The notes below the pieces were generated by a model, which was not told the origin of the DNA, did no database searches, and saw nothing but the letters and a program-made list of their open reading frames with translations. The position numbers and the translations under genes are program-made. From a virus, in IMG/VR virus record IMGVR_UViG_3300045988_049599: a stretch of 37,580 nucleotides of DNA; one strand, written 5' to 3'. Shown piece by piece: positions 2,863-36,266 of the stretch. Within the stretch, counting starts at the first letter, position 1. The number at the start of each line of letters is the position of its first letter.

Positions 2863-2995
2863 AGTCTTCACCAACAATGGTTTTGTATTCGTCAGTCGTA
2901 ATTTTTTCTTTCACGACTGCATTCTTGACCATTTTTTTCGTCCACCATCCGGCTTCATACCATTCTTTGATTTTCGTGTACCACCACTTACTCAT
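2849..2995 (-). CDS. XkdX-like small phage protein (48 aa; below the ORF-track cutoff)
   Basis: Hand translation: MSKWWYTKIKEWYEAGWWTKKMVKNAVVKEKITTDEYKTIVGEDYVTD. The W-rich N terminus plus the ITxxEY..I.G pattern is characteristic of XkdX. SD GGAGGAG lies upstream. Confidence 0.6.
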   Translation of the reverse strand: MSKWWYTKIKEWYEAGWWTKKMVKNAVVKEKITTDEYKTIVGEDYVTD

Positions 2996-3167
2996 CGCTT
3001 TCTCCTCCTTCCGCAATATTTTTCGTTTCTGCTGTCGACAGGTCTACGCCGCTCATCATTGCGACATATGTCGTTTGTGCTACGCTCTGATTGAGCTGAG
3101 AGCGCAGGGCTCGGTTTGTTGTTTCCGCTTTCTGTAAGCGCTCTTCCATTGTGATTACCTTGAACAT
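2988..3167 (-). CDS. Small coiled-coil hypothetical protein; lies entirely within the 3' end of the RT ORF in another frame
   Basis: The ORF track gives 2988-3242. Start chosen at MFKVITMEERL (3167), 7 nt after GGAGG. The sequence reads as a natural protein, whereas the co-linear RT frame is low-complexity and R-rich. Confidence 0.45.
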   Translation of the reverse strand: MFKVITMEERLQKAETTNRALRSQLNQSVAQTTYVAMMSGVDLSTAETKNIAEGGESDE

Positions 3168-4206
3168 TTGCATCCCTCCATAAATTTCTATAGTATTCAT
3201 ACATCTTTTTGATGATGTTATAATTGTTGCCGTGTGCGGCATGAGCGGCCCAACATCGCAGGCTCACATCGGCTGTATCGCGTGGCAGCTTGCCAGTTTT
3301 GATGAGCTTGACCATCTTCTTGAGCTTTCTGCGCTCGTGATAGATTTTATCCTTACTCAGCGTGACGAGTATCTTGCCGGACGGCTTAACGCGCAGCCTA
3401 AAGCCGAGCCATTTGAAGCCACGCGACACCGGCACTACACGGCATTTTCGTGGGTGCAGCTGTAAGCGGATTTTGTCAAGCTCACGCTCGATAGCTCTGC
3501 GATATTCCGCGGCGTGTTCTTTTCCATCTGTGATGATAATAAAGTCATCCATGTACCGCGCGTAGAATCTTACGTGCAACCGCTCTTTGATAAAGTGGTC
3601 CAGGTCATCCAGCACAGCTAGCTCGATGTACTGCGCCACGTCCGAGCCTAGGCCAATGCCAACATCGCCCGGGAAGCTGTCAATGATCTGATCTACAAGT
3701 CGGCACGCCCAGTCATCACGTACGCGCTTACGGACGGCGGCTTTGGCCACATTGTGCCGCGTACTGCCGAAGAAGCTCCTGATGTCATACGTGTACGCAT
3801 AGACATTATCGCCGTAAAGTCGGTGCGCCTTTTCGAGCATCATCTTGACACGCCGGATTGAGAAACCCGGTCCCTTGCCTACCTGGCCCGCCGCGTTATC
3901 GTAGATAAAGTGGCGCGTCAATTCAGCTGCCAAGTAGTTATATAAGAGCGACCGTTGGGCCTGGCGGTCGCGGAAGCGCATGGCCACGACAGTCCGCTCT
4001 TTGGGCTCATACACTTTAAACTCAATTTGTTTGCCGAGCTTGTACGTACCGTCCAGAAGCTCTTGACGTAACTTCTCAGTGTTTACAAGACCGTTTTGCA
4101 GATACTTGATGACGCTCGCTTTCCAGCGCACGCCATTCGAGCAGTGCTGCATGGCATCGTAGAGATTCCCAAAATTTGATACAATTTCTTTTGCTGATTT
4201 TTCCAT
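2992..4206 (-). CDS. DGR-type reverse transcriptase
   Basis: 404 aa. RT motif 5 is RYMDDFIII. A DGR-clade-like motif is GIGLGSDVAQYIELAVLDDLDHFIKE (compare the LGxxxSQ...LDHF pattern). It sits about 135 nt downstream of a TR. The last ~60 aa are low-complexity and overlap another ORF. Confidence 0.9.
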   Translation of the reverse strand: MEKSAKEIVSNFGNLYDAMQHCSNGVRWKASVIKYLQNGLVNTEKLRQELLDGTYKLGKQIEFKVYEPKERTVVAMRFRDRQAQRSLLYNYLAAELTRHFIYDNAAGQVGKGPGFSIRRVKMMLEKAHRLYGDNVYAYTYDIRSFFGSTRHNVAKAAVRKRVRDDWACRLVDQIIDSFPGDVGIGLGSDVAQYIELAVLDDLDHFIKERLHVRFYARYMDDFIIITDGKEHAAEYRRAIERELDKIRLQLHPRKCRVVPVSRGFKWLGFRLRVKPSGKILVTLSKDKIYHERRKLKKMVKLIKTGKLPRDTADVSLRCWAAHAAHGNNYNIIKKMYEYYRNLWRDANVQGNHNGRALTESGNNKPSPALSAQSERSTNDICRNDERRRPVDSRNEKYCGRRRKR

Positions 4207-4341
4207 AAAATTAAAACCGTGCTGATAGCGGGGCCGGCGTAATCCGCCCGCGTCACGGCATCTTGTTTGCCTCCTTTGGAGGACGGGCTTCGCGCTCCTT
4301 GCATCGGCTCTGATTTCGCTTTCGCTACTTTATCGGGCCCA

Positions 4342-4449
4342 TGTAATCCGGGGCGACGCCGCCCAAGTTGTACGCGTTGTTGTTCCACCAGGTGCGACCG
4401 CCATCGGTGACGTTGCGCACGTTGTACGCATTATCGCAGTTCGGCGACC
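4342..4449 (-). repeat. DGR template repeat (TR)
   Basis: 108 nt aligning without gaps to 4966-5073. All 18 mismatches are T on the plus strand, which is A on the transcribed minus strand. In the VR reading frame it contains seven AAC codons. The following 4207-4341 would be the spacer RNA region. Confidence 0.9.
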
Positions 4450-4458
4450 CTACAGCGC

Positions 4459-4905
4459 TCAGCCCATGCTCTTATATTTCTCGGTATCTGATTTTTTCCA
4501 TGCAAGCAGGAGAGGCTTGACTTTATCGAGCTGTGCCGTCCACGTCGCGATGTTGACACGCTTCTTTGGCTTGCTCGTCGTATCGATGTGGCGTAGCCCG
4601 CTGAAAAGCTTGAAAGCGGTATCCATCGCGGCGCTGAGTGCGGCGATGTCCGCAATAGCTTTCTGCTGATATGTACGCCGTAGCTTTGCGCTCTCGTAGT
4701 CATTGACGTATACCGAGTTGGCTTTTGCGATATGCATCTTGGCCTGTACAGCTGCATCAATAATCTGCTGTGTCAGGCACCAGCGGTAGCGCTTTGGAAA
4801 ACGTCTTTCGTCGGTGCAGATTTGTATTGTGTAGCACGCGAGCGTATCAGCTTCGACAAGCACACTGAGTGGCGTTGTCGTGCGCTTTGATTTTGGTATA
4901 GCCAT
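4459..4905 (-). CDS. avd: Avd-like accessory variability determinant (basic four-helix-bundle-type protein)
   Basis: 148 aa, basic and helical (FPKRYRWCLTQQIIDAAVQAKMHIAKAN...). It sits exactly between the VR-bearing gene and the TR, as in the Bordetella phage BPP-1 cassette. Confidence 0.75.
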   Translation of the reverse strand: MAIPKSKRTTTPLSVLVEADTLACYTIQICTDERRFPKRYRWCLTQQIIDAAVQAKMHIAKANSVYVNDYESAKLRRTYQQKAIADIAALSAAMDTAFKLFSGLRHIDTTSKPKKRVNIATWTAQLDKVKPLLLAWKKSDTEKYKSMG

Positions 4906-4923
4906 TTCTCTTCTCCTCTATCC

Positions 4924-4947
4924 ATCCGCCGCCGTGTGGCGGCGGAT
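4924..4947 (-). promoter_or_regulatory. GC-rich hairpin or cruciform downstream of the VR; candidate DGR target-recognition element
   Basis: Perfect 10-bp stem ATCCGCCGCC / GGCGGCGGAT with a 4-nt loop, 19 nt past the VR 3' end. There is no equivalent after the TR. Confidence 0.7.
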
Positions 4948-4954
4948 TCTTCGA

Positions 4955-6181
4955 TTATTCGATTCTGCAAGCCGGGGCGACGCCGCCCAAGCCGTACGCG
5001 CCGCCGCCCCACCAGGAGCGACCGCCAACGGCGACGCCGCGCACGTAGTACGCATTATCGCAGCCCGGCGACCGTTCCCACCAGGACCATTCGGTTGAGG
5101 TGCCCTGTTTGTATTTGCGGCGGTTATCGTCTTGTTCGGCATTTATTCCTGTCTTGCCGTCACGGCGGAATTTTGTGTAGTAATCCCAGACGACCGCATC
5201 TTCGATGTCCTGCACGGCCGAGCCAGGATTAGAGTAGAAGTTATCGCCGCCGTTGAGGTTGACCATCGCCGGCAGGAAGAAGTAATCCTGTGTCGTTTCG
5301 TGACCGCCGGCGTCACTGATTTTATTGATGTCCGTGATAAGGTTCGACTTCGCGATGACAGCAAGGAAATCGGCATCGAGGTCATTCATAAAGCCCGCCC
5401 ATGTCGCATAATGCTCAGGTCGGTCAAAATCATTGCGCGGGCTCCACCATGCACCCGCGCCTGCTTTGCTGTTGAGCCATTGTCTGAGTCCAGACTGGCT
5501 CCAGCGGTTGTAGCCATAGCAGACGCGCTGCGCATGGTTGACCGTGCCGAGTGTCGCAAGGTCCGTGCCGTTGGTGCCCTCTGTAAGCGTGACCGTCTCA
5601 AGCGCTGTCGTGTCTGCCGGCTTCGAGTAAGTCGCGATACCGAGGGGCGCGAGGCTGGTATCCCAGTCCATGCCTTTTGCAAAATTGATCTGACCGCCGG
5701 CTGGCACATCTTTTGTCGTCGTAAATTGCCAGCTCTTTGTCCAGCCGGATTTGCTAGAATCCGTCCAATTTGGATCCGTGATGCCAGACGTTGAGGTCGT
5801 AAAGTGATACGTGCCGGCCGGCAGGGTCGTCTTTGCGCGGAAAATCGCCTCGCGTGAATCAAACTCCATCGTATCCATCGGCAGGCAGTCATGCGTCTGC
5901 AAGATGACGTAGTTGCCGCCCGTCTCCTCAACATCGCCGATATGTACGATGTCCCATGTCAGCGTCGTATCGCCTTTCTTGCACTGGAGCCGGTCGCCTA
6001 CGCCGTAGTATGTACGTATGCCGCCGGCACGGCAGAGATTCCGGAAGCCTTCCCAGGATCTTACCGCCGATTCTCCGGCCGCTTTAAAATGATTTTTAAA
6101 AATATCGTTTTGCGATTCGATGGCCGCGGCGATGCGCGTGTAGTCTTCACGCCGCGGAAAATTTACAATATCTGTTGCCAT
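4955..6181 (-). CDS. DGR target protein; putative receptor-binding fibre-tip protein with a C-type-lectin-like variable C terminus
   Basis: 408 aa. The C terminus carries the VR on a W-rich scaffold (STEWSWWERSPGC...). It is located directly after the fibre-like ORFs. Confidence 0.85.
   Translation of the reverse strand: MATDIVNFPRREDYTRIAAAIESQNDIFKNHFKAAGESAVRSWEGFRNLCRAGGIRTYYGVGDRLQCKKGDTTLTWDIVHIGDVEETGGNYVILQTHDCLPMDTMEFDSREAIFRAKTTLPAGTYHFTTSTSGITDPNWTDSSKSGWTKSWQFTTTKDVPAGGQINFAKGMDWDTSLAPLGIATYSKPADTTALETVTLTEGTNGTDLATLGTVNHAQRVCYGYNRWSQSGLRQWLNSKAGAGAWWSPRNDFDRPEHYATWAGFMNDLDADFLAVIAKSNLITDINKISDAGGHETTQDYFFLPAMVNLNGGDNFYSNPGSAVQDIEDAVVWDYYTKFRRDGKTGINAEQDDNRRKYKQGTSTEWSWWERSPGCDNAYYVRGVAVGGRSWWGGGAYGLGGVAPACRIE
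4966..5073 (-). repeat. DGR variable repeat (VR) at the 3' end of the target gene
   Basis: Cognate of TR 4342-4449. It encodes SPGCDNAYYVRGVAVGGRSWWGGGAYGLGGVAPAC, where the TR encodes SPNCDNAYNVRNVTDGGRTWWNNNAYNLGGVAPDY. Confidence 0.9.
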
Positions 6182-6192
6182 ATTTCATCCTC

Positions 6193-6627
6193 CTATTGTG
6201 TCGTAATGACGAGGTCTAGGCCGCCGTCTTCGGTGTTGATTGCCAGCTGTACGCTGTCCGTGATCGCTAAAATTTCTTTTTCCTTGATAGCGTTCGCGGT
6301 CGCTTCGGCTTGCTGGGCGTATGTCTGGGCCGCATTTTTCGCGTCTACAGCTGCATTGGATGCTGCTTTTGTGTCTGCAAGATTAGTTTGTAGCTGTTCT
6401 GCTACGCCTTGGTCCCATACGGTGGCGATGTCCTCATATCGGGCGTCGCTGTCTCCGGTGTTTACTTTGACGTTTGTCTTTCCGTCGGGCTTTTTGACAA
6501 AGAGCAATTCGCCCGGGCGGATGGCCGGGTTGTATTTCTCCCAGTCCGCCGCTGCGGCGATAGAGTGCTGGATGCGCGAGTAGCCGCCTTTTGTCGTGGT
6601 TGTCGTATTCGTTGTGGTGTCTGCCAT
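6193..6627 (-). CDS. Fibre-associated protein with an Mtd-N-like / hyaluronidase-N-like N-terminal domain and an Ala-rich stalk
   Basis: 144 aa. RIQHSIAAAADWEKYNPAIRPGELLFVKK...VNTGDSDARYEDI resembles the GT.A.W...NP.L..GE....DT...K.GDG motif. It is followed by an A/N/Q-rich coiled region. Confidence 0.55.
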   Translation of the reverse strand: MADTTTNTTTTTKGGYSRIQHSIAAAADWEKYNPAIRPGELLFVKKPDGKTNVKVNTGDSDARYEDIATVWDQGVAEQLQTNLADTKAASNAAVDAKNAAQTYAQQAEATANAIKEKEILAITDSVQLAINTEDGGLDLVITTQ

Positions 6628-6641
6628 TATTTCTCACCTCC

Positions 6642-7100
6642 TTACATAGCAGCAGGGCCAGCGCCTACTATAAAATGTCCGTTCCCCATTTCTTTTGGGG
6701 GCGGACCGATGATGTCAAAAAGCATAGCGTTGTATGCCGCTTCTACGGCTTCTTTTGTGCCGGCAATGTCATCTTTGTCTTGTGTGGCTATATCTGCCTG
6801 GGCTTTTGCATCGGCAGCGGACTGTTTGGCCTGTGCCGCAGAGTCAGCTGCTTCGCTCAGACTGGGTACATGGACAGAGAAAATATTGCCGTTAATGTCG
6901 GTCATGACCAGGTTATTTTCTGAGTCGGTCGTGACAGATACAATCGTTCCCCGGAGCCATTTATTGACCCAATCCTCTTCCGTGCCCGTGTAGCCGTTCT
7001 GAACAGCTATGTCATAGGCACTATAGCCGCGTTCGCCACGTCGGGCGAAATGGCCGGAAATGCTGCCGCCGCTGCTCAAATGTGCTTTTAATGTCGCCAT
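6642..7100 (-). CDS. Tail-fibre-like protein
   Basis: 152 aa. It has the GERGYSAYDIAVQNGYTGTEEDWVNKWL motif common in phage fibre proteins and an Ala-rich stalk. The C-terminal peptide DIIGPPPKEM..FIVGAGPAAM is shared with 7584-8405. Confidence 0.6.
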   Translation of the reverse strand: MATLKAHLSSGGSISGHFARRGERGYSAYDIAVQNGYTGTEEDWVNKWLRGTIVSVTTDSENNLVMTDINGNIFSVHVPSLSEAADSAAQAKQSAADAKAQADIATQDKDDIAGTKEAVEAAYNAMLFDIIGPPPKEMGNGHFIVGAGPAAM

Positions 7101-7104
7101 CTCA

Positions 7105-7419
7105 TCACCTCGTTACGTCTGCGATGACCCGGAAAAGGGCCGGCCCGACGGTCTGCACTCCGCCGCCCTGGGTCCGGACCTCGATGTCATAAACATAGTC
7201 ACCGGCCTCTAAATCATTCGTCATTTCATGGGTTAGCGACACGACGCCATTTTGGACAGGGGCCTGGAAGACATACGCGTCGTCGGTAATTTTTTTCTTT
7301 ACGCTAAAAACAGCAGTGTAAGGTCCGATGTCCGAACCGTCTTCTTGTGTCAGATTTACGTCAAAGCTGTCCGTATCTCCACGGATATGATAGATGCTTG
7401 TGCCGATTATTTTCAGCAT
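7105..7419 (-). CDS. Small beta-sandwich (Ig-like) fibre-module protein, function unknown
   Basis: 104 aa with an all-beta-looking sequence (IRGDTDSFDVNL...YVYDIEVRT). It has an ATG start and lies within the fibre cluster. Confidence 0.45.
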   Translation of the reverse strand: MLKIIGTSIYHIRGDTDSFDVNLTQEDGSDIGPYTAVFSVKKKITDDAYVFQAPVQNGVVSLTHEMTNDLEAGDYVYDIEVRTQGGGVQTVGPALFRVIADVTR

Positions 7420-7424
7420 TTATT

Positions 7425-7568
7425 TCACCCTTTCTTGCAAATCGTCCAGCCGGTGATGAGCGGATGCGGCCACCATCGGAGACCCGCGCACGCAGTACGC
7501 ATAATCGCAGTGCGGCTACCGCTCCCACCAGCCCCACTCAGTCGAGGCCCCCTGCTTGTATCTGCCAT
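7425..7568 (-). pseudogene. Decayed fragment of a second DGR target C terminus (remnant VR plus scaffold)
   Basis: About 95 nt (7470-7565) align to 5023-5118 of the active target. The homologous frame reads RYKQGASTEWGWWER(stop)PHCDYAYCVRG and has a 1-nt deletion. The distal VR third, including the GC-rich 3' element, is missing. A 47-codon out-of-frame ORF begins MADT like 6193-6627. Confidence 0.6.
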
Positions 7569-7583
7569 GGTCCTTCACCTCCT

Positions 7584-8405
7584 TTAGCTCGATGCCATGG
7601 CTGCCGGTCCTGCGCCGACGATAAAATTAGCCACCGCCATGAACTCGGGGGGCGGTCCTACAATATCGTAGTACATCGCGCGATACATTTTTTCTACGCT
7701 GACCTGCACATCAGCTATCGCGGACTGCGATGCGGCGGCCGCGGCGGCCTGAGTAGATGCGGCGGTGGCACTCGATGCGGCGTCTGTAGCGCTGCTTTTT
7801 GCTTTGCTGGCATAGTCAGCTGCGCTGCTCATCGCGGCCTGAGCGTAGCTATTGCTTGTAGATGCATCAGATGCGCTTTTTGCCGCAGCGGTAGCGCAGT
7901 CGATAGCTTTAGCGGAATTTTCCTGGGCTAGCGCGACGAGCTCTTCGGCGGTCTTCGGCAGTACCAATTCGACCGTTGTTTTGCTGGTCGTGGCGATGCG
8001 CACGTGGAAAACCATCTGTACATTATTACCATCCGTCTTGCATGCTATGTAGCCAGGTGTACTATCGTAGCAAACCCCGTAAAGGATTTCTTTGCCGGCA
8101 CTGTCTTGCGCGAAAATGCCTAGCTCTGTCGCTTCATATCCAGCTTCTACTGCTTCGCTCGTCAGGGATGCAGTGAGTAAGCACGTGCGCACATCGCCGA
8201 CGTCCTCCGTCGTGATGCTCGTAATGATCATTGTATTCTGTGGTGCAAAAAGCGCCGATCGCGCGGCATAATCGTCGATGGTATTTGCCTGCCCACTACC
8301 GAGTTGCATCTTGGTCAGCTTGAGCGTGAGTTTGCCAGCCTCGACGTCCGCCATGAGCTTTGCGCCGGCAGTCGTCAGCGCGTAGCCGCTCGAAAAATTT
8401 GACAT
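7584..8405 (-). CDS. Tail fibre protein (tail-collar-fibre N-terminal domain, Ala/Ser-rich stalk)
   Basis: 273 aa. The N terminus (ALTTAGAKLMADVEAGKLTLKLTKMQLGSG) is paralogous to that of 8420-9385 and resembles the P2 gpH N-terminal type. The C terminus is DIVGPPPEFM..FIVGAGPAAM. Confidence 0.7.
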   Translation of the reverse strand: MSNFSSGYALTTAGAKLMADVEAGKLTLKLTKMQLGSGQANTIDDYAARSALFAPQNTMIITSITTEDVGDVRTCLLTASLTSEAVEAGYEATELGIFAQDSAGKEILYGVCYDSTPGYIACKTDGNNVQMVFHVRIATTSKTTVELVLPKTAEELVALAQENSAKAIDCATAAAKSASDASTSNSYAQAAMSSAADYASKAKSSATDAASSATAASTQAAAAAASQSAIADVQVSVEKMYRAMYYDIVGPPPEFMAVANFIVGAGPAAMASS

Positions 8406-8419
8406 GCTGTGTCACCTCC

Positions 8420-9385
8420 TCATGCTGTGCGATACCATGCATCAACGACGGTGGCGAGCGGCATAATCAACATCCCCGCGCCGCCGCCTGCGTTGTTTGT
8501 TGTGAATGTGTGTGTGTGGTCGCCGTCCGAAGACGTATGACCGTCCACTCTATTGCCATGCCAGCAACCGTCGCCATAGCCTATTGCCTGTGCGTCATTA
8601 TTTCCTTCACACGCATCCCATTGTAAAGCACGCGGCAGCGCGCCACTCGTCCAGTGTCTATGCCTACCGTCCGTATCTGTCGTGCCTCTGTGGCTATGCG
8701 TTGGCATCTCTGGGATAGTAATATTATGCATTTCCTCGCCGGCCGTCTTGCCAGCTGTAAGCGTCTTTCCGGCATAGCTTCCCGACGCCAGCAGGTACGA
8801 CCCTTCAATTTTCTTCCAAGTGCCGCCAAAAGCCGTTGCCGGATCTGCACCACCGATATTCAAATAAACGCTGCCAATCGGGTGTGCGCGGTCTAGAGCT
8901 TTTGTCTCTGCAGCGTCGAGCATCGCTTTTGTAACGTACGTGTCCATTGCGACGGCGATGCTGATACTCGATGCGTTTGATGTCTTGATGTAGACCGTAG
9001 TCAAGATATTGCGTACCAGCGCTCCTGCCTGCTCGGCATTCATCACGTCAGGGTTATTCGCCGTGCTGACAGCAAAAAGCGTCTCGGAGTTATTGTACGT
9101 CGCGTAGACGCCCAGCGTGGCCAGCGTATACGACGCGGACAGGCCGACATTGGTAACGTTGAATTCGAGCTTGACGGTTGTGCTGTCTACTGTAGTGGCT
9201 GATGCCAGTGGGAAGCTCTGTCTTATATCGTCGAGCGATGTGAGCGCTGCAATCGCGCTCTGTGTGTACGTGTGCGAGCTCGTCTTGATGGACGATACCG
9301 TGAAGGTGCCTTTATTAGCGACTGCTTTAGCCAGCAGTGCGCGCCCGGCATCTGTCACTACAAATTGGTTGTAAGTTGCCATCAA
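8420..9385 (-). CDS. Tail fibre protein with a His-rich, tail-collar-like C-terminal domain
   Basis: 321 aa. The N terminus (VVTDAGRALLAKAVANKGTFTVSSIK) is fibre-type. The C terminus has repeated HxH motifs (HSH, HRH, HTHTF) and a PIGSVY...GGTW segment as in tail-collar domains. Confidence 0.7.
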   Translation of the reverse strand: MMATYNQFVVTDAGRALLAKAVANKGTFTVSSIKTSSHTYTQSAIAALTSLDDIRQSFPLASATTVDSTTVKLEFNVTNVGLSASYTLATLGVYATYNNSETLFAVSTANNPDVMNAEQAGALVRNILTTVYIKTSNASSISIAVAMDTYVTKAMLDAAETKALDRAHPIGSVYLNIGGADPATAFGGTWKKIEGSYLLASGSYAGKTLTAGKTAGEEMHNITIPEMPTHSHRGTTDTDGRHRHWTSGALPRALQWDACEGNNDAQAIGYGDGCWHGNRVDGHTSSDGDHTHTFTTNNAGGGAGMLIMPLATVVDAWYRTA

Positions 9386-33943: not shown

Positions 33944-34087
33944 TTAGCTTCTGCCGATGAGCAGTAGAAATTCAAAAAACGTCATGTGTTCTTTGAGCAT
34001 CCCGTTGTAGTAAATCCAGTACTCGATGCCCAGGGCCATAATAGCGAGTAGCACAACGACCATAATTTCCATGATTTTTAGCTTCAT
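33944..34087 (-). CDS. Small hydrophobic membrane peptide (47 aa; below the ORF-track cutoff)
   Basis: Hand translation: MKLKIMEIMVVVLLAIMALGIEYWIYYNGMLKEHMTFFEFLLLIGRS. SD GGAGAG lies upstream. Confidence 0.35.
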   Translation of the reverse strand: MKLKIMEIMVVVLLAIMALGIEYWIYYNGMLKEHMTFFEFLLLIGRS

Positions 34088-34123
34088 TCGTTTTTTCTCT
34101 CCGTTACTTTCTATTTCAGCAAG

Positions 34124-34324
34124 TTATTGGGTATAAAAATCATTAATACTACATTTTAGTTTCTTCGCCATTATTGGCAACATATTCGCATCAAACGTAT
34201 AATCCCCATGCTCATATTTCCAGTATGTTGACCCATTTTTTAATCCAAATGCTTTAGCCATTTCATCAATAGTGATTCCTAATGCTTTTCTTCGTTCATG
34301 GATATATGCTAAATTTAATTTCAT
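34124..34324 (-). CDS. Cro-like XRE-family HTH regulator
   Basis: 66 aa (IHERRKALGITIDEMAKAFGLKNGSTYWKYEHG). It is divergent from the CI-like gene. Confidence 0.7.
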   Translation of the reverse strand: MKLNLAYIHERRKALGITIDEMAKAFGLKNGSTYWKYEHGDYTFDANMLPIMAKKLKCSINDFYTQ

Positions 34325-34348
34325 TATATCACCTCATTATTTCTATTT

Positions 34349-34438
34349 TAGAAAGTTTCTATATCTGTAATATACACTTTCCAATTCAGAAAGTCAATGC
34401 TTTAACTTGTTATTTTGGAAATTTTTCGCTTTCCAAAA
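34349..34438. promoter_or_regulatory. Immunity switch region: early promoter plus candidate operators
   Basis: Minus-strand promoter: -35 TTGACT (34397-34392), 17-nt spacer, -10 TATATT (34374-34369). Palindrome TAGAAAGTTTCTA lies at 34349-34361, and half-site AGAAAGT recurs at 34388-34394. Inverted repeat TTTTGGAAA-N8-TTTCCAAAA lies at 34413-34438. Confidence 0.5.
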
Positions 34439-34488
34439 CGGAAATATTATATAATCTAATTATCATTGGAATAAGGGGGTGAACCATA

Positions 34489-34986
34489 ATGACTACAGGC
34501 GAAAGAATCCGGAACATTCGTGAAGATAAAGATATTCTCCAACAAGAATTAGCAGATGCTATTGGCATGAATGTCAGTGTATTAAGTCGAATAGAAAAAG
34601 GAACTCGTCCAATTCGAGACGATGAACTTATTAAAATCGCGAACAAACTATCTGTCTCATCTGATTATCTCTTAGGCATAGCCACTTCCCCTTCGTCCAC
34701 TATTCCCGTTTCCTTGACTACTACGGAAAAAGATATACTTCATTTTTATCGCCAGCTTGATGAACGAGACCAAGGCGCTATTTATGGTGAAATGAAGGGT
34801 ATGCTTCGCGCCGAAAAATATCGTCATAATTTTGATTCTATCCAAGATACCACTACATCTATACATGAAGCGCCTAGTGATTTTTCGATTGCCGCATCAG
34901 GCCTTGATGAAAATATCCAAGCTGGCAATGAAAACATGGAACTCATCAAGAAGCGTGTCAGTGAACTTGTGAAAAAACAAAAATAA
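34489..34986 (+). CDS. CI-like prophage repressor (XRE-family HTH)
   Basis: 165 aa. It has an N-terminal HTH (IRNIREDKDILQQELADAIGMNVSVLSRIEKG) and SD GGGGGTGA. It is followed by the ImmA-like gene. Confidence 0.75.
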   Translation: MTTGERIRNIREDKDILQQELADAIGMNVSVLSRIEKGTRPIRDDELIKIANKLSVSSDYLLGIATSPSSTIPVSLTTTEKDILHFYRQLDERDQGAIYGEMKGMLRAEKYRHNFDSIQDTTTSIHEAPSDFSIAASGLDENIQAGNENMELIKKRVSELVKKQK

Positions 34987-34999
34987 AGTAGGTGACGCC

Positions 35000-35446
35000 A
35001 TGAATTATTGCGATATGTTAGATTTATGCTATCGTGAAGGCATTGTCCTATCAGTCGAAAATTTTAAACCGCCATTAAATGGTATTTATATATCATGTGA
35101 TGGCCTCCACGCCATTATGTTGGCTAACCGTATCCTTGATAATATTCCGCTGCGCAACGTCGTTTTAGCCGAAGAAATCGGCCATCATTTCACATTGGCC
35201 GGCAATAACCTTCCCACAGAACATTGGAATCGACTGAACCGCTGTAATTATAGTAAAGATGAAGCTCGTGCGATTCGATGGGCCGCTATTCATCTCATAC
35301 CGGCTCACGAACTCATGCAAGCATTACGTGACGACATTATAACAGTTCCTGAATTAGCAGAATACTTCCAAGTTACTCCGTCATTTGTGGTTTATCGAAT
35401 GTCCTTGCCCGATGCTCAGCGTTTTCAATATCAATATATTATGTAA
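35000..35446 (+). CDS. ImmA/IrrE-like protein with a non-canonical metal motif
   Basis: 148 aa in the position of ImmA after the repressor. The motif is LAEEIGHHF, where HExxH is expected. Confidence 0.5.
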   Translation: MNYCDMLDLCYREGIVLSVENFKPPLNGIYISCDGLHAIMLANRILDNIPLRNVVLAEEIGHHFTLAGNNLPTEHWNRLNRCNYSKDEARAIRWAAIHLIPAHELMQALRDDIITVPELAEYFQVTPSFVVYRMSLPDAQRFQYQYIM

Positions 35447-35474
35447 ATATTTTTTTAGTAAAGGGAGTGGTATC

Positions 35475-36266
35475 ATGTATACTTTTTTCAATGCCTTGAT
35501 TTTCATTACTTTCATTATGTTTATTGCATCATTAATTAAGCCTAAATGGGGTACATTCGGAAAGCGTCCAGACCTTAAAAGAAAGCAAATCAGTACTGTT
35601 TACTTTATTTTGCTTATGTTATTTACGGCTGCGGCTAATGCAACTACCCCAGAAGATATTAAAATTGCTAATCAAGAGAAGGCGGAACAACAAAGAATCG
35701 AACAAGACCAGAAAAAGTTTGCAGATAATAATGTATTCTGTAAATATTATGGTTTTACAGTTGAACAAGCTAAGGCTATTGATTCTGCACTTGAATCCGT
35801 CGGCATTGCTTCTGTAAAAGATTCGACAAAACAGTCCGATAATGTTTATTATTTATCCGTTTCAGCAAAAGATGACGGTTATTCTCCAGCCGATAATTCC
35901 ATCCACCTTTTTTTAGATAATGATAGAAATGTCACTGCTATTAAACTAAATGCAATCACACTGTATGAAAATGGGGCCCCAGTACATCAAGTTAACGATT
36001 TTCTTTTAAAACCCAGTGAACAAGCTACTATGATAACAAAATCGGAAGAAATGGTTAAAAAAGTTCTTAAAGCTCCAAGTTCTGCAAAGTTTGATTCTAG
36101 TACATATAAATTCTATAAAAAAGATGGTATAGCTACCCTGATAGGCACAGTTGACGCACAAAATAGTTTTGGTGCTATGTTGCGGTCTAACTTTAAAGTC
36201 CAGTTTGATGTTAATAATGATTTCAAACCAATTCATATGACATTTGATGCAAAAGAACTTTTCTAA
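35475..36266 (+). CDS. Membrane-anchored hypothetical protein in the lysogeny module; candidate superinfection-exclusion protein
   Basis: Start chosen at MYTFFNALIFITFIMFIASLI (35475) after AAGGGAG. It has two N-terminal hydrophobic helices followed by a soluble domain. The coding sequence is visibly AT-rich. Confidence 0.6.
   Translation: MYTFFNALIFITFIMFIASLIKPKWGTFGKRPDLKRKQISTVYFILLMLFTAAANATTPEDIKIANQEKAEQQRIEQDQKKFADNNVFCKYYGFTVEQAKAIDSALESVGIASVKDSTKQSDNVYYLSVSAKDDGYSPADNSIHLFLDNDRNVTAIKLNAITLYENGAPVHQVNDFLLKPSEQATMITKSEEMVKKVLKAPSSAKFDSSTYKFYKKDGIATLIGTVDAQNSFGAMLRSNFKVQFDVNNDFKPIHMTFDAKELF

Follow-up and report, generated by a model that had tools for sequence, protein, structure and literature searches.

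A very probably complete diversity-generating retroelement in a temperate contractile-tailed phage with relatives in Megasphaera and Acidaminococcus genomes

Diversity-generating retroelements (DGRs) are, to our knowledge, unique in nature in directing hypermutation at particular proteins of bacteria, archaea and their viruses, and gut phages serve as their main reservoir. The prototype is the element of phage BPP-1 (mtd-avd-TR-brt), in which a target gene ending in a variable region (VR) is followed by a hairpin, the gene for the accessory variability determinant (avd), a template repeat (TR), a spacer and the gene for the reverse transcriptase (RT). Here we describe an element of this class in IMG/VR virus record IMGVR_UViG_3300045988_049599, a 37,580-nucleotide (nt) stretch of DNA that was analyzed over its whole length and is referred to as the window. 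Several published features of such elements provide the frame for comparison. In the BPP-1 RT (bRT), residues R74, I181, G182 and Q187 contact the template base and the incoming nucleotide (bioRxiv 10.1101/2023.10.23.563531). At the RNA level, a duplex bracketing the TR, a tetraloop stem-loop after the TR, and a further stem-loop with adenosines have been described for 207 DGRs (Handa et al.). The structured RNA motif RT-2 was given no function when it was reported, and the idea that some RT motifs serve DGRs was raised as speculation only (PMC5737381). Among target proteins, the DUF6273 family adopts a C-type-lectin-like fold and has been published as a DGR target in which the VR occupies the C-terminal end, such targets being described as tail or receptor-binding proteins (PMC10743442, PMC11792537).

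The region from 2992 to 6181 is, with a probability of roughly 0.9, a complete canonical DGR carried by a temperate contractile-tailed phage whose relatives reside in Megasphaera and Acidaminococcus genomes. Each part named in the original prediction was located on the minus strand where it had been placed, whether as an open reading frame (ORF), repeat, hairpin or spacer, and the gene order is that of BPP-1. The cassette and the associated features are as follows.

4955–6181, minus strand: DGR target gene, 408 residues (six-frame ORF list)
4966–5073, minus strand: VR, 108 nt, target codons 370–405 (repeat of the TR)
4955–4988, minus strand: 3' end of the VR, a 17-nt GC-rich element and then a sequence like the initiation of mutagenic homing (IMH) site (from the sequence)
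4925–4946, minus strand: GC hairpin (from the sequence)
4459–4905, minus strand: avd, 148 residues (six-frame ORF list)
4454–4465, minus strand: 5' strand of the RNA duplex bracketing the TR (RNAalifold helix 1, pairs with 4285–4296)
4342–4449, minus strand: TR, 108 nt with 25 adenines (repeat comparison)
4207–4341, minus strand: TR–RT spacer, 135 nt (Rfam RT-2 match at 4194–4342)
2992–4206, minus strand: RT ORF, 404 residues (six-frame ORF list)
3163–4206, minus strand: RT core, 348 codons (Pfam RVT_1, 8ub7_A and the ends of the relatives' RTs)
2992–3162, minus strand: RT readthrough tail, 56 Arg-rich codons (alignment with seven relatives)
2988–3167, minus strand: conserved 59-residue gene 3' of the RT (start and frame kept in relatives)
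7462–7565, minus strand: fossil of a second VR (homology to the first VR, VR1)

The RT, avd and target genes contain no frameshifts and no internal stop codons in the ORF list. The TR is non-coding; it starts 10 nt past the avd stop codon and lies inside the 252-nt intergenic region between avd and the RT gene. Plus-strand ORFs across the cassette (e.g. 5132–5794) were set aside as presumed shadows of the GC-rich minus-strand genes.

The TR and VR constitute the largest direct repeat in the first 9 kb of the window, aligning over 108 nt without gaps at 83% identity. Re-alignment confirmed the proposed adenine specificity in full: all 18 mismatches fall on TR adenines, occupying 18 of the 25 available (14 A>G, 3 A>T and 1 A>C; hypergeometric P = 3.5e-15), and the 83 non-adenine TR positions show no mismatch at all, which suggests that the last rewriting of the VR was recent. 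In a BLAST-based self-comparison this was the sole adenine-biased pair in the 37.6-kb window, and a sliding scan of both strands of the whole window returned no second match to the non-adenine positions of the TR. The mutable, adenine-templated positions of the VR span 4992–5065; the VR itself ends three codons before the end of the 408-codon target, in keeping with the earlier assignment of the last ~36 codons to it. Fourteen TR codons contain adenine, of which eight are AAC or AAT with 15 outcomes each and six have 4 outcomes each, giving ~1e13 possible peptide variants and no possible stop codon. Among the changes seen in VRs, A>G predominates by a wide margin (14/18 here, 10/16 in the related contig L001 and 15/27 in L006), and six of the eight Asn-templated VR codons now read GGC (Gly).

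The 3' ends of the two repeats carry the putative recognition elements. The 17-nt GC-rich element of the VR (4972–4988) is identical to that of the TR (4348–4364), and the IMH-like tails beyond it differ, reading CTTGCAGAATCGAATAA on the VR side and ATTACATGGGCC... on the TR side. The last two TR/VR mismatches (GATTACA in the TR, GCTTGCA in the VR) are shared by every relative, and the VR-side GCTTGC encodes A404 and C405, residues that are invariant in 77 homologues. These two mismatches are fixed differences between IMH* and IMH and not products of mutagenesis; with the pair removed, 16 mutagenesis-type mismatches at 22 adenines are left. The hairpin begins 9 nt past the target stop codon and consists of a 9-bp stem (TCCGCCGCC/GGCGGCGGA) closed by the 4-nt loop ACAC. 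No T-run follows it, and it was not flagged as a terminator. Its stem is kept in 12/12 relatives examined, in shortened form in L038 and L007, with a loop of varying sequence.

Searches for other copies defined how closely the locus is related to known sequences. Megablast of 2900–8500 against 50,697 GenBank phage records gave no match. Two exact-pattern scans of a viral contig collection, one with the TR carrying N at every adenine and the other with the window-specific VR tail plus hairpin, were likewise empty, so that no near-identical copy with a different VR was recovered; one metagenome scan yielded relatives at 78–86% identity only. RT identity is 92% for the uncultivated viral contig L001, 87% for L002–L004, 80% for L005–L006 and 70% for L038, a prophage in Acidaminococcus fermentans. 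Six relatives (L001, L003, L004, L005, L006 and L038) were aligned base by base, and each has its own TR and VR at equal spacing, with 14–27 mismatches nearly all at TR adenines; L002 gave an equivalent pattern in the detector scan described below. The TRs differ between lineages by 0–5 per 101 nt and the VRs by 14–20 positions. Twenty TR positions are polymorphic among seven lineages, and at these the base in the VR agrees with that of its own TR in 107/107 non-adenine cells; for bases specific to one lineage, the agreement is 27/27. TR-to-VR information flow has thus persisted in every lineage, this one included. The VR of L006 also contains a tandem duplication of ~21 nt (GCGTACGGCTGGGGCGGCGTC twice, L006 positions 5186–5228) just before its GC-rich end, which would lengthen the variable loop by seven residues.

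A sister lineage provided a more immediate view of diversification. Two target proteins from the sister cluster are identical at residues 1–370 and differ at 15 of the last 38. At the DNA level, 6483 nt could be aligned between contigs L086 and L089, which stem from separate sequencing runs, and 19 of these differ; all 19 differences lie within 79 nt of the VR, 17 of them at TR adenines, and the two TRs are identical. Such VR-only variation shows directly that diversification by this DGR family takes place in nature. A seemingly broken RT in L087, for which there was no RT gene call, was rejected as a gene-calling artefact, the DNA being identical to that of L086.

For the exact copy in the window, we infer present activity from its intact genes, the absence of non-adenine TR/VR mismatches and the behavior of its relatives. 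Several results weigh against a complete and working element and are gathered here. The RT lacks its ancestral stop codon and carries a 56-residue basic tail; the TR has lost an AAC at codon 399, and with it one variable position; and this target allele recurs in just one further contig, which is 100% identical over 4741 nt, so that one VR allele is known. In addition, the Avd ORF has no Pfam match of its own and reaches only E = 0.068, below threshold, with NCBIfam DivGenRetAVD, PDB sequence searches with this ORF and with a 46-member family profile found no Avd, and one PHROG containing a DUF6273 region that the target matches at E = 2.1e-17 is labelled 'Hoc-like head decoration'.

The first three of these results are what would be expected of a DGR inactivated very recently, in which loss of the RT stop or erosion of the TR stopped diversification and left the VR frozen in its last state. 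The RT family is 348 residues long, ending ...LWRD-NV*, and six relatives have an RT of this length. The 404-residue ORF of the original prediction does exist where it was placed, but alignment with relatives resolves the real unit into a 348-residue RT followed by a 56-residue readthrough tail. The ancestral TAA sits within the start of the next gene (ATG TTT AAA); here it has become CAA (3160–3162), a change that turns TTT into TTC and is synonymous in that 59-residue gene. The RT ORF therefore continues for 56 Arg-rich codons in another frame of the 59-residue gene, and the resulting tail (isoelectric point, pI, 10.8) ends at the XkdX gene start. In the template, codons 398–399 (TR 4362–4366, VR 4986–4990) read TTG GGC here versus TGG AAC or TTG AAC in relatives, and the VR bears the same GGC as the TR at codon 399. 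Being a doubly A>G-changed codon within the template, this GGC looks like the outcome of VR-to-TR gene conversion or of cDNA homing into the TR. Decay is also known in the family: the prophage of Megasphaera sp. AM44-1BH (L039/L008, NZ_QSFA01000011.1) has kept the target with its VR and most of avd, and a deletion equivalent to window 3469–4481 has removed the avd 3' end, the TR, the spacer and RT codons 1–244, leaving a disabled DGR whose VR is fixed.

We nevertheless consider recent inactivation of the window copy unlikely. Its three genes are free of frameshifts and internal stops, all RT catalytic residues are present, and the absence of mismatches at the 83 non-adenine TR positions points to recent rewriting. 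Moreover, the RT C-terminus of the L086 lineage is altered as well, through a 1-nt insertion and in a manner different from the tail here, yet that lineage shows VR-only variation; such tails are evidently tolerated. The earlier description of the element as 'fully functional' holds for its genes, which are intact, and has to be softened to probable for this exact copy, in which an RT stop codon and one TR AAC codon have been lost. The 59-residue gene overlapping the RT tail is not a DGR part. It has a ribosome-binding site (RBS), GGAGGG, and the start ATGTTCAAG, every relative, even the divergent L038, retains that start and the reading frame, and no family match was found for it. A longer, 84-residue ORF at 2988–3242 was rejected as a real gene, given that the RBS and the start at 3167, which belong to the 59-residue version, are the ones conserved in relatives.

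The target protein matches Pfam DUF6273 over residues 220–407 (E = 4.8e-13) and PHROG 19280 (E = 2.4e-39), and falls in a 90%-identity cluster of 221 sequences. Its AlphaFold2 (AF2) model has a predicted local distance difference test score (pLDDT) of 90.6, with a helical N-terminus that is poorly modelled. Foldseek matched this model to DUF6273 proteins of uncultured phages and to the DUF6273 N-terminal domain of the gut IgA peptidase 9qa6; Mtd, TvpA and other C-lectin DGR targets were not among the Foldseek matches against the PDB, and a PDB sequence search with the target produced chance matches only. Across 77 full-length homologues, column entropy averages 0.36 bits for residues 1–370 and 1.21 bits for residues 371–408, and its peaks coincide with the TR AAC/AAT codons 373, 376, 379, 382, 392–394, 397 and 399. 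By analogy with described systems, the varied surface most likely changes the cell-surface ligand bound by the phage tail. This tropism-switching role is suggested by the position of the gene, the last of the tail-fibre module and directly before XkdX and the lysis genes, together with the known use of DUF6273 targets.

An active DGR could instead act on an accessory adhesin for mucus, glycans or other bacteria, or on a decoration protein, with no switch of tropism. The Hoc-like PHROG label would fit such a role, as would the occurrence of DUF6273 in non-phage proteins such as the gut bacterial IgA peptidase and the presence in this phage of two other fibre proteins with tail-collar-type N-termini. 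We regard it as quite improbable, because the target closes the fibre module, in the sister lineage a GpJ-like tail tip protein is followed by an equivalent fibre and DGR block, the fossil VR likewise lies within the fibre module, and published DUF6273 DGR targets are described as tail or receptor-binding proteins (PMC10743442, PMC11792537).

Profile and PDB searches grouped the RT with DGR RTs, as had been anticipated. The ORF matches Pfam RVT_1 (E = 1.7e-12) and PHROG 1423 (E = 2e-88), and its best PDB match, over residues 9–339, is 8ub7_A, the Bordetella DGR RT (E = 4.7e-26, 94.9 bits), from an entry entitled 'Diversity-generating retroelement (DGR) ribonucleoprotein reverse transcriptase'; the next PDB match, a group II intron RT, scores 41.5 bits. 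The translation contains RYMDDFIII and GLGSDVAQ...LDHFIKE. Alignment identifies the catalytic aspartates as D141 and D220/D221 (YMDD), and R71, L186, G187 and Q192 as the counterparts of bRT R74, I181, G182 and Q187. As a clade test, a simple TR/VR detector, with minima of 50 nt for repeat length and 80% for the share of mismatches at adenines of one copy, was run on 83 loci encoding RT homologues at 23–92% identity. An adenine-specific pair was present in 55/83 loci, nearly always just upstream of the RT, and only 2/83 passed a control criterion with C or G in place of adenine. Scores against other RT classes were below the curated NCBIfam cut-offs: 75 bits versus 300 for group II RT/maturase TIGR04416, 26 versus 235 for retron St85 RT and 67 versus 200 for Drt3a, with Drt2, Drt4 and Drt5 far under theirs. 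PADLOC gave scores at the generic-RT level only (generic RT 90 bits, Drt3a 79 bits), and Rfam detected no group II intron RNA and no retron msr/msd RNA in the window. Membership of the RT in one of these classes (group II intron, retron or DRT/Abi), with a 108-nt repeat that arose by duplication and has nothing to do with it, can be dismissed as exceedingly improbable: these generic matches fall far short of class assignment, the nearest solved RT is that of a DGR, most homologous loci are DGRs, and the adenine-only mismatch pattern occurs beside an Avd, an IMH, a hairpin and an RT-2 spacer.

The 148-residue basic helical ORF was likewise borne out as Avd. It matches PHROG 3206, 'Avd protein of DGR', over its full length (E = 8.1e-13), and in an alignment of 46 homologues, 12 match Pfam bAvd and 9 match 23S_rRNA_IVP; the Acidaminococcus homologue is named 'four helix bundle protein' by NCBI. 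The protein has a pI of 9.83. Its AF2 model (pLDDT 84) shows four long helices, for which the best Foldseek matches are 2gsc, 2rld and the Avd chains 8ub8_C and 8ub7_C/E.

The RNA surrounding the TR appears to be structured in the manner described for other DGRs. Rfam RF03077 (RT-2) matches 4194–4342 end to end (model positions 1–222; 48.2 bits, gathering score 40), coinciding with the TR–RT spacer, and equivalent matches occur in the equivalent place in L001, L003, L005 and L086. The avd 3' end, TR and spacer from 12 relatives were then aligned and folded with RNAalifold. In the predicted structure, 4454–4465 (the last avd codons and intergenic bases) pairs with 4285–4296 to form a duplex that brackets the TR, comprising 10 pairs with 98% of cells paired and 3 pairs supported by compensatory changes in L038 and L007. 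The TR is directly followed by a stem-loop capped with GAAA (4306–4339), a second stem-loop (4270–4282) precedes an A-rich run (4260–4269, CAAACAAGA), and a two-helix domain is predicted at the 3' side (4216–4259). Over the six helices and 39 pairs, 95.8% of cells are standard-paired across the 12 relatives. Compensatory changes affect 14 pairs versus 3.9 ± 1.5 in shuffled alignments (0/500 as high), and sliding the partners by 1–3 columns leaves 0–4 such pairs. This architecture matches the description of Handa et al. The RT-2 model starts at the last TR base and so omits the 5' strand of the TR-bracketing duplex; the functional RNA unit is predicted to be larger than the curated RT-2 family. 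A search for a cis-priming duplex between the TR 3' end and the spacer with RNAduplex returned pairings that were strong but inconsistent among relatives, and the priming site was not found.

These features can be assembled into a working model, in which we infer the biochemical steps, the priming site and the receptor-binding role from BPP-1. The avd–TR–spacer–RT transcript would fold such that the long-range duplex brackets the TR, and the spacer stem-loops would bind the RT–Avd complex. The RT would then copy the TR into cDNA by cis-priming, misincorporating opposite template adenines, and the mutagenized cDNA would replace the VR at the 3' end of the 408-residue DUF6273 gene, with targeting through the GC-rich/IMH end of the VR and the downstream hairpin. 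The 14 adenine-containing codons could in this way yield the full range of stop-free variants, and the altered surface would change the ligand that the phage tail binds on the cell.

A decayed second target in the neighborhood, also part of the original prediction, proved to be real and can now be specified as a truncated VR fossil that is frozen across relatives. Homology of the fossil (7462–7565) extends over the last conserved codons of the target and the 59 nt at the 5' end of VR1, and the fossil is 82% identical to 5037–5118. It contains an in-frame TAG (7516–7518) and a 1-nt deletion, and, since it ends before the 3' half of the VR, it is without a GC-rich element, IMH or hairpin. Relative to the TR, it has 12 mismatches in 59 nt, 7 at adenines and 5 elsewhere; the five non-adenine differences are ordinary decay and include the C>A change that makes the TAG. 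Four genomes (the window, L001, L003 and L004) carry the fossil without any difference, whereas VR1 differs among them at 8–11 of the equivalent 59 positions.

The surroundings of the fossil record past rearrangement. Its beginning is a duplicate of the RBS and ATGGCAGA start of ORF 6193–6627, and it follows the fibre gene 7584–8405, whose last 52 residues are 52% identical (E = 2e-15) to the last 52 of ORF 6642–7100 in a block ending FIVGAGPAAM. Gene junctions consisting of the RBS AGGAGGTG and ATG are repeated at 6619–6643, 7558–7584 and 8397–8420. The Megasphaera sp. AM44-1BH prophage lacks 6729–7556, the insert carrying the VR fossil, and has a single-copy arrangement. The simplest history would be that the fibre module underwent an internal duplication or recombination and that one target copy was then largely deleted. 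On balance, we lean slightly toward viewing the fossil as a natural deletion experiment, which would indicate birth-and-death turnover of DGR targets and a strict dependence of homing on the 3' recognition elements in this family. The deletion part of this view follows from adenine-type scars that stay unchanged in four phages differing by 10–20% elsewhere, while the intact VR 2.4 kb away has been rewritten in each; the turnover part follows from the duplicated C-terminal block, the duplicated gene start and the single-copy arrangement in AM44-1BH.

The window makes up an entire contig, and its wider gene content identifies the carrier as a PBSX/Xkd-like temperate contractile-tailed phage with the DGR between its fibre and lysis modules, as originally read. 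Head genes comprise TerL, portal and an HK97-type capsid protein; tail genes comprise sheath, XkdM-like tube, XkdN-like chaperone, tape measure and baseplate proteins and two tail-collar-type fibre proteins; and XkdX, a holin-like protein, a GH25-type endolysin and a tyrosine integrase are also encoded. The cassette is flanked by the tail-fibre and baseplate genes on one side and by the XkdX, holin-like and endolysin module on the other. In the sister contigs L086–L089 (Logan contigs), the cassette is preceded by a differently composed block of small distal-fibre ORFs and lies downstream of a 1328-residue protein with GpJ-type domains (FNIII-A_GpJ, Phage-tail_3), a siphovirus-type tail tip. 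As the window has a myovirus baseplate instead, the cassette appears to be mobile between tail types as a module. Elsewhere in the window, a stretch of 36.5% G+C (34001–36000) lies just upstream of the integrase gene in a contig otherwise at 44–56% G+C, and may be a moron or foreign insert.

The DGR class is heavily catalogued and DUF6273 is already a described target family, so no new principle emerges here. What the locus offers is an unusually clean example of the class from hosts that have received little study, the Negativicutes Megasphaera and Acidaminococcus; a place inside bona fide DGRs for the orphan Rfam motif RT-2; metagenomic evidence in the form of VR-only change between otherwise identical contigs; and a natural control, in which a frozen VR fossil without 3' recognition elements stands beside a live VR. 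The covariation-supported RNA architecture and the loss of the RT stop codon likewise set it slightly apart from routine members of the class. If a lysogen can be cultured, the phage would make a compact model for tropism switching against a diderm Firmicute.

The element can be compared part by part with that of BPP-1. It shares the order of target with VR, hairpin, avd, TR, spacer and RT, a VR formed by the last ~36 target codons, differences confined to adenines, and AAC-rich TR codons that never become stops. It further shares the GC-rich element with IMH and IMH* at the 3' ends, a GC hairpin past the VR whose loop has 4 nt, a basic Avd of the four-helix-bundle type, an RT that can be aligned over residues 9–339 and retains the residues for catalysis and template contact, and a structured spacer that includes a TR-bracketing duplex and a tetraloop stem-loop. 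Both elements reside in temperate tailed phages and have their target among the fibre genes. It departs from BPP-1 in that the target is a DUF6273 protein and not Mtd, with no link found by PDB sequence search or by Foldseek against the PDB, and in that the spacer is RT-2 rather than RT-10 (PMC5737381). The Avd here, of 148 residues, contains an additional loop and resembles bAvd only remotely; in the RT motif LGxxxAQ, L186 and A191 stand in place of bRT I181 and S186, and the RT carries the 56-residue readthrough tail; the host is a Negativicute and not a Proteobacterium; and the tail is contractile.

The closest match in target type is found in the DUF6273-target DGRs of gut Bacillota, namely the Faecalibacterium prophages Lelie, CP11, Roos and Pioen and phages nd4 and nd12 target2. 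The present element differs from these in its host clade, Megasphaera/Acidaminococcus, and in having one live target plus a truncated fossil where they have two live targets. With respect to Rfam RF03077 RT-2 (Weinberg et al. 2017), the spacer here and those of four relatives match the model above its gathering score; unlike in the source description, RT-2 is found here inside bona fide DGRs, and the RNA extends to a duplex strand upstream of the TR.

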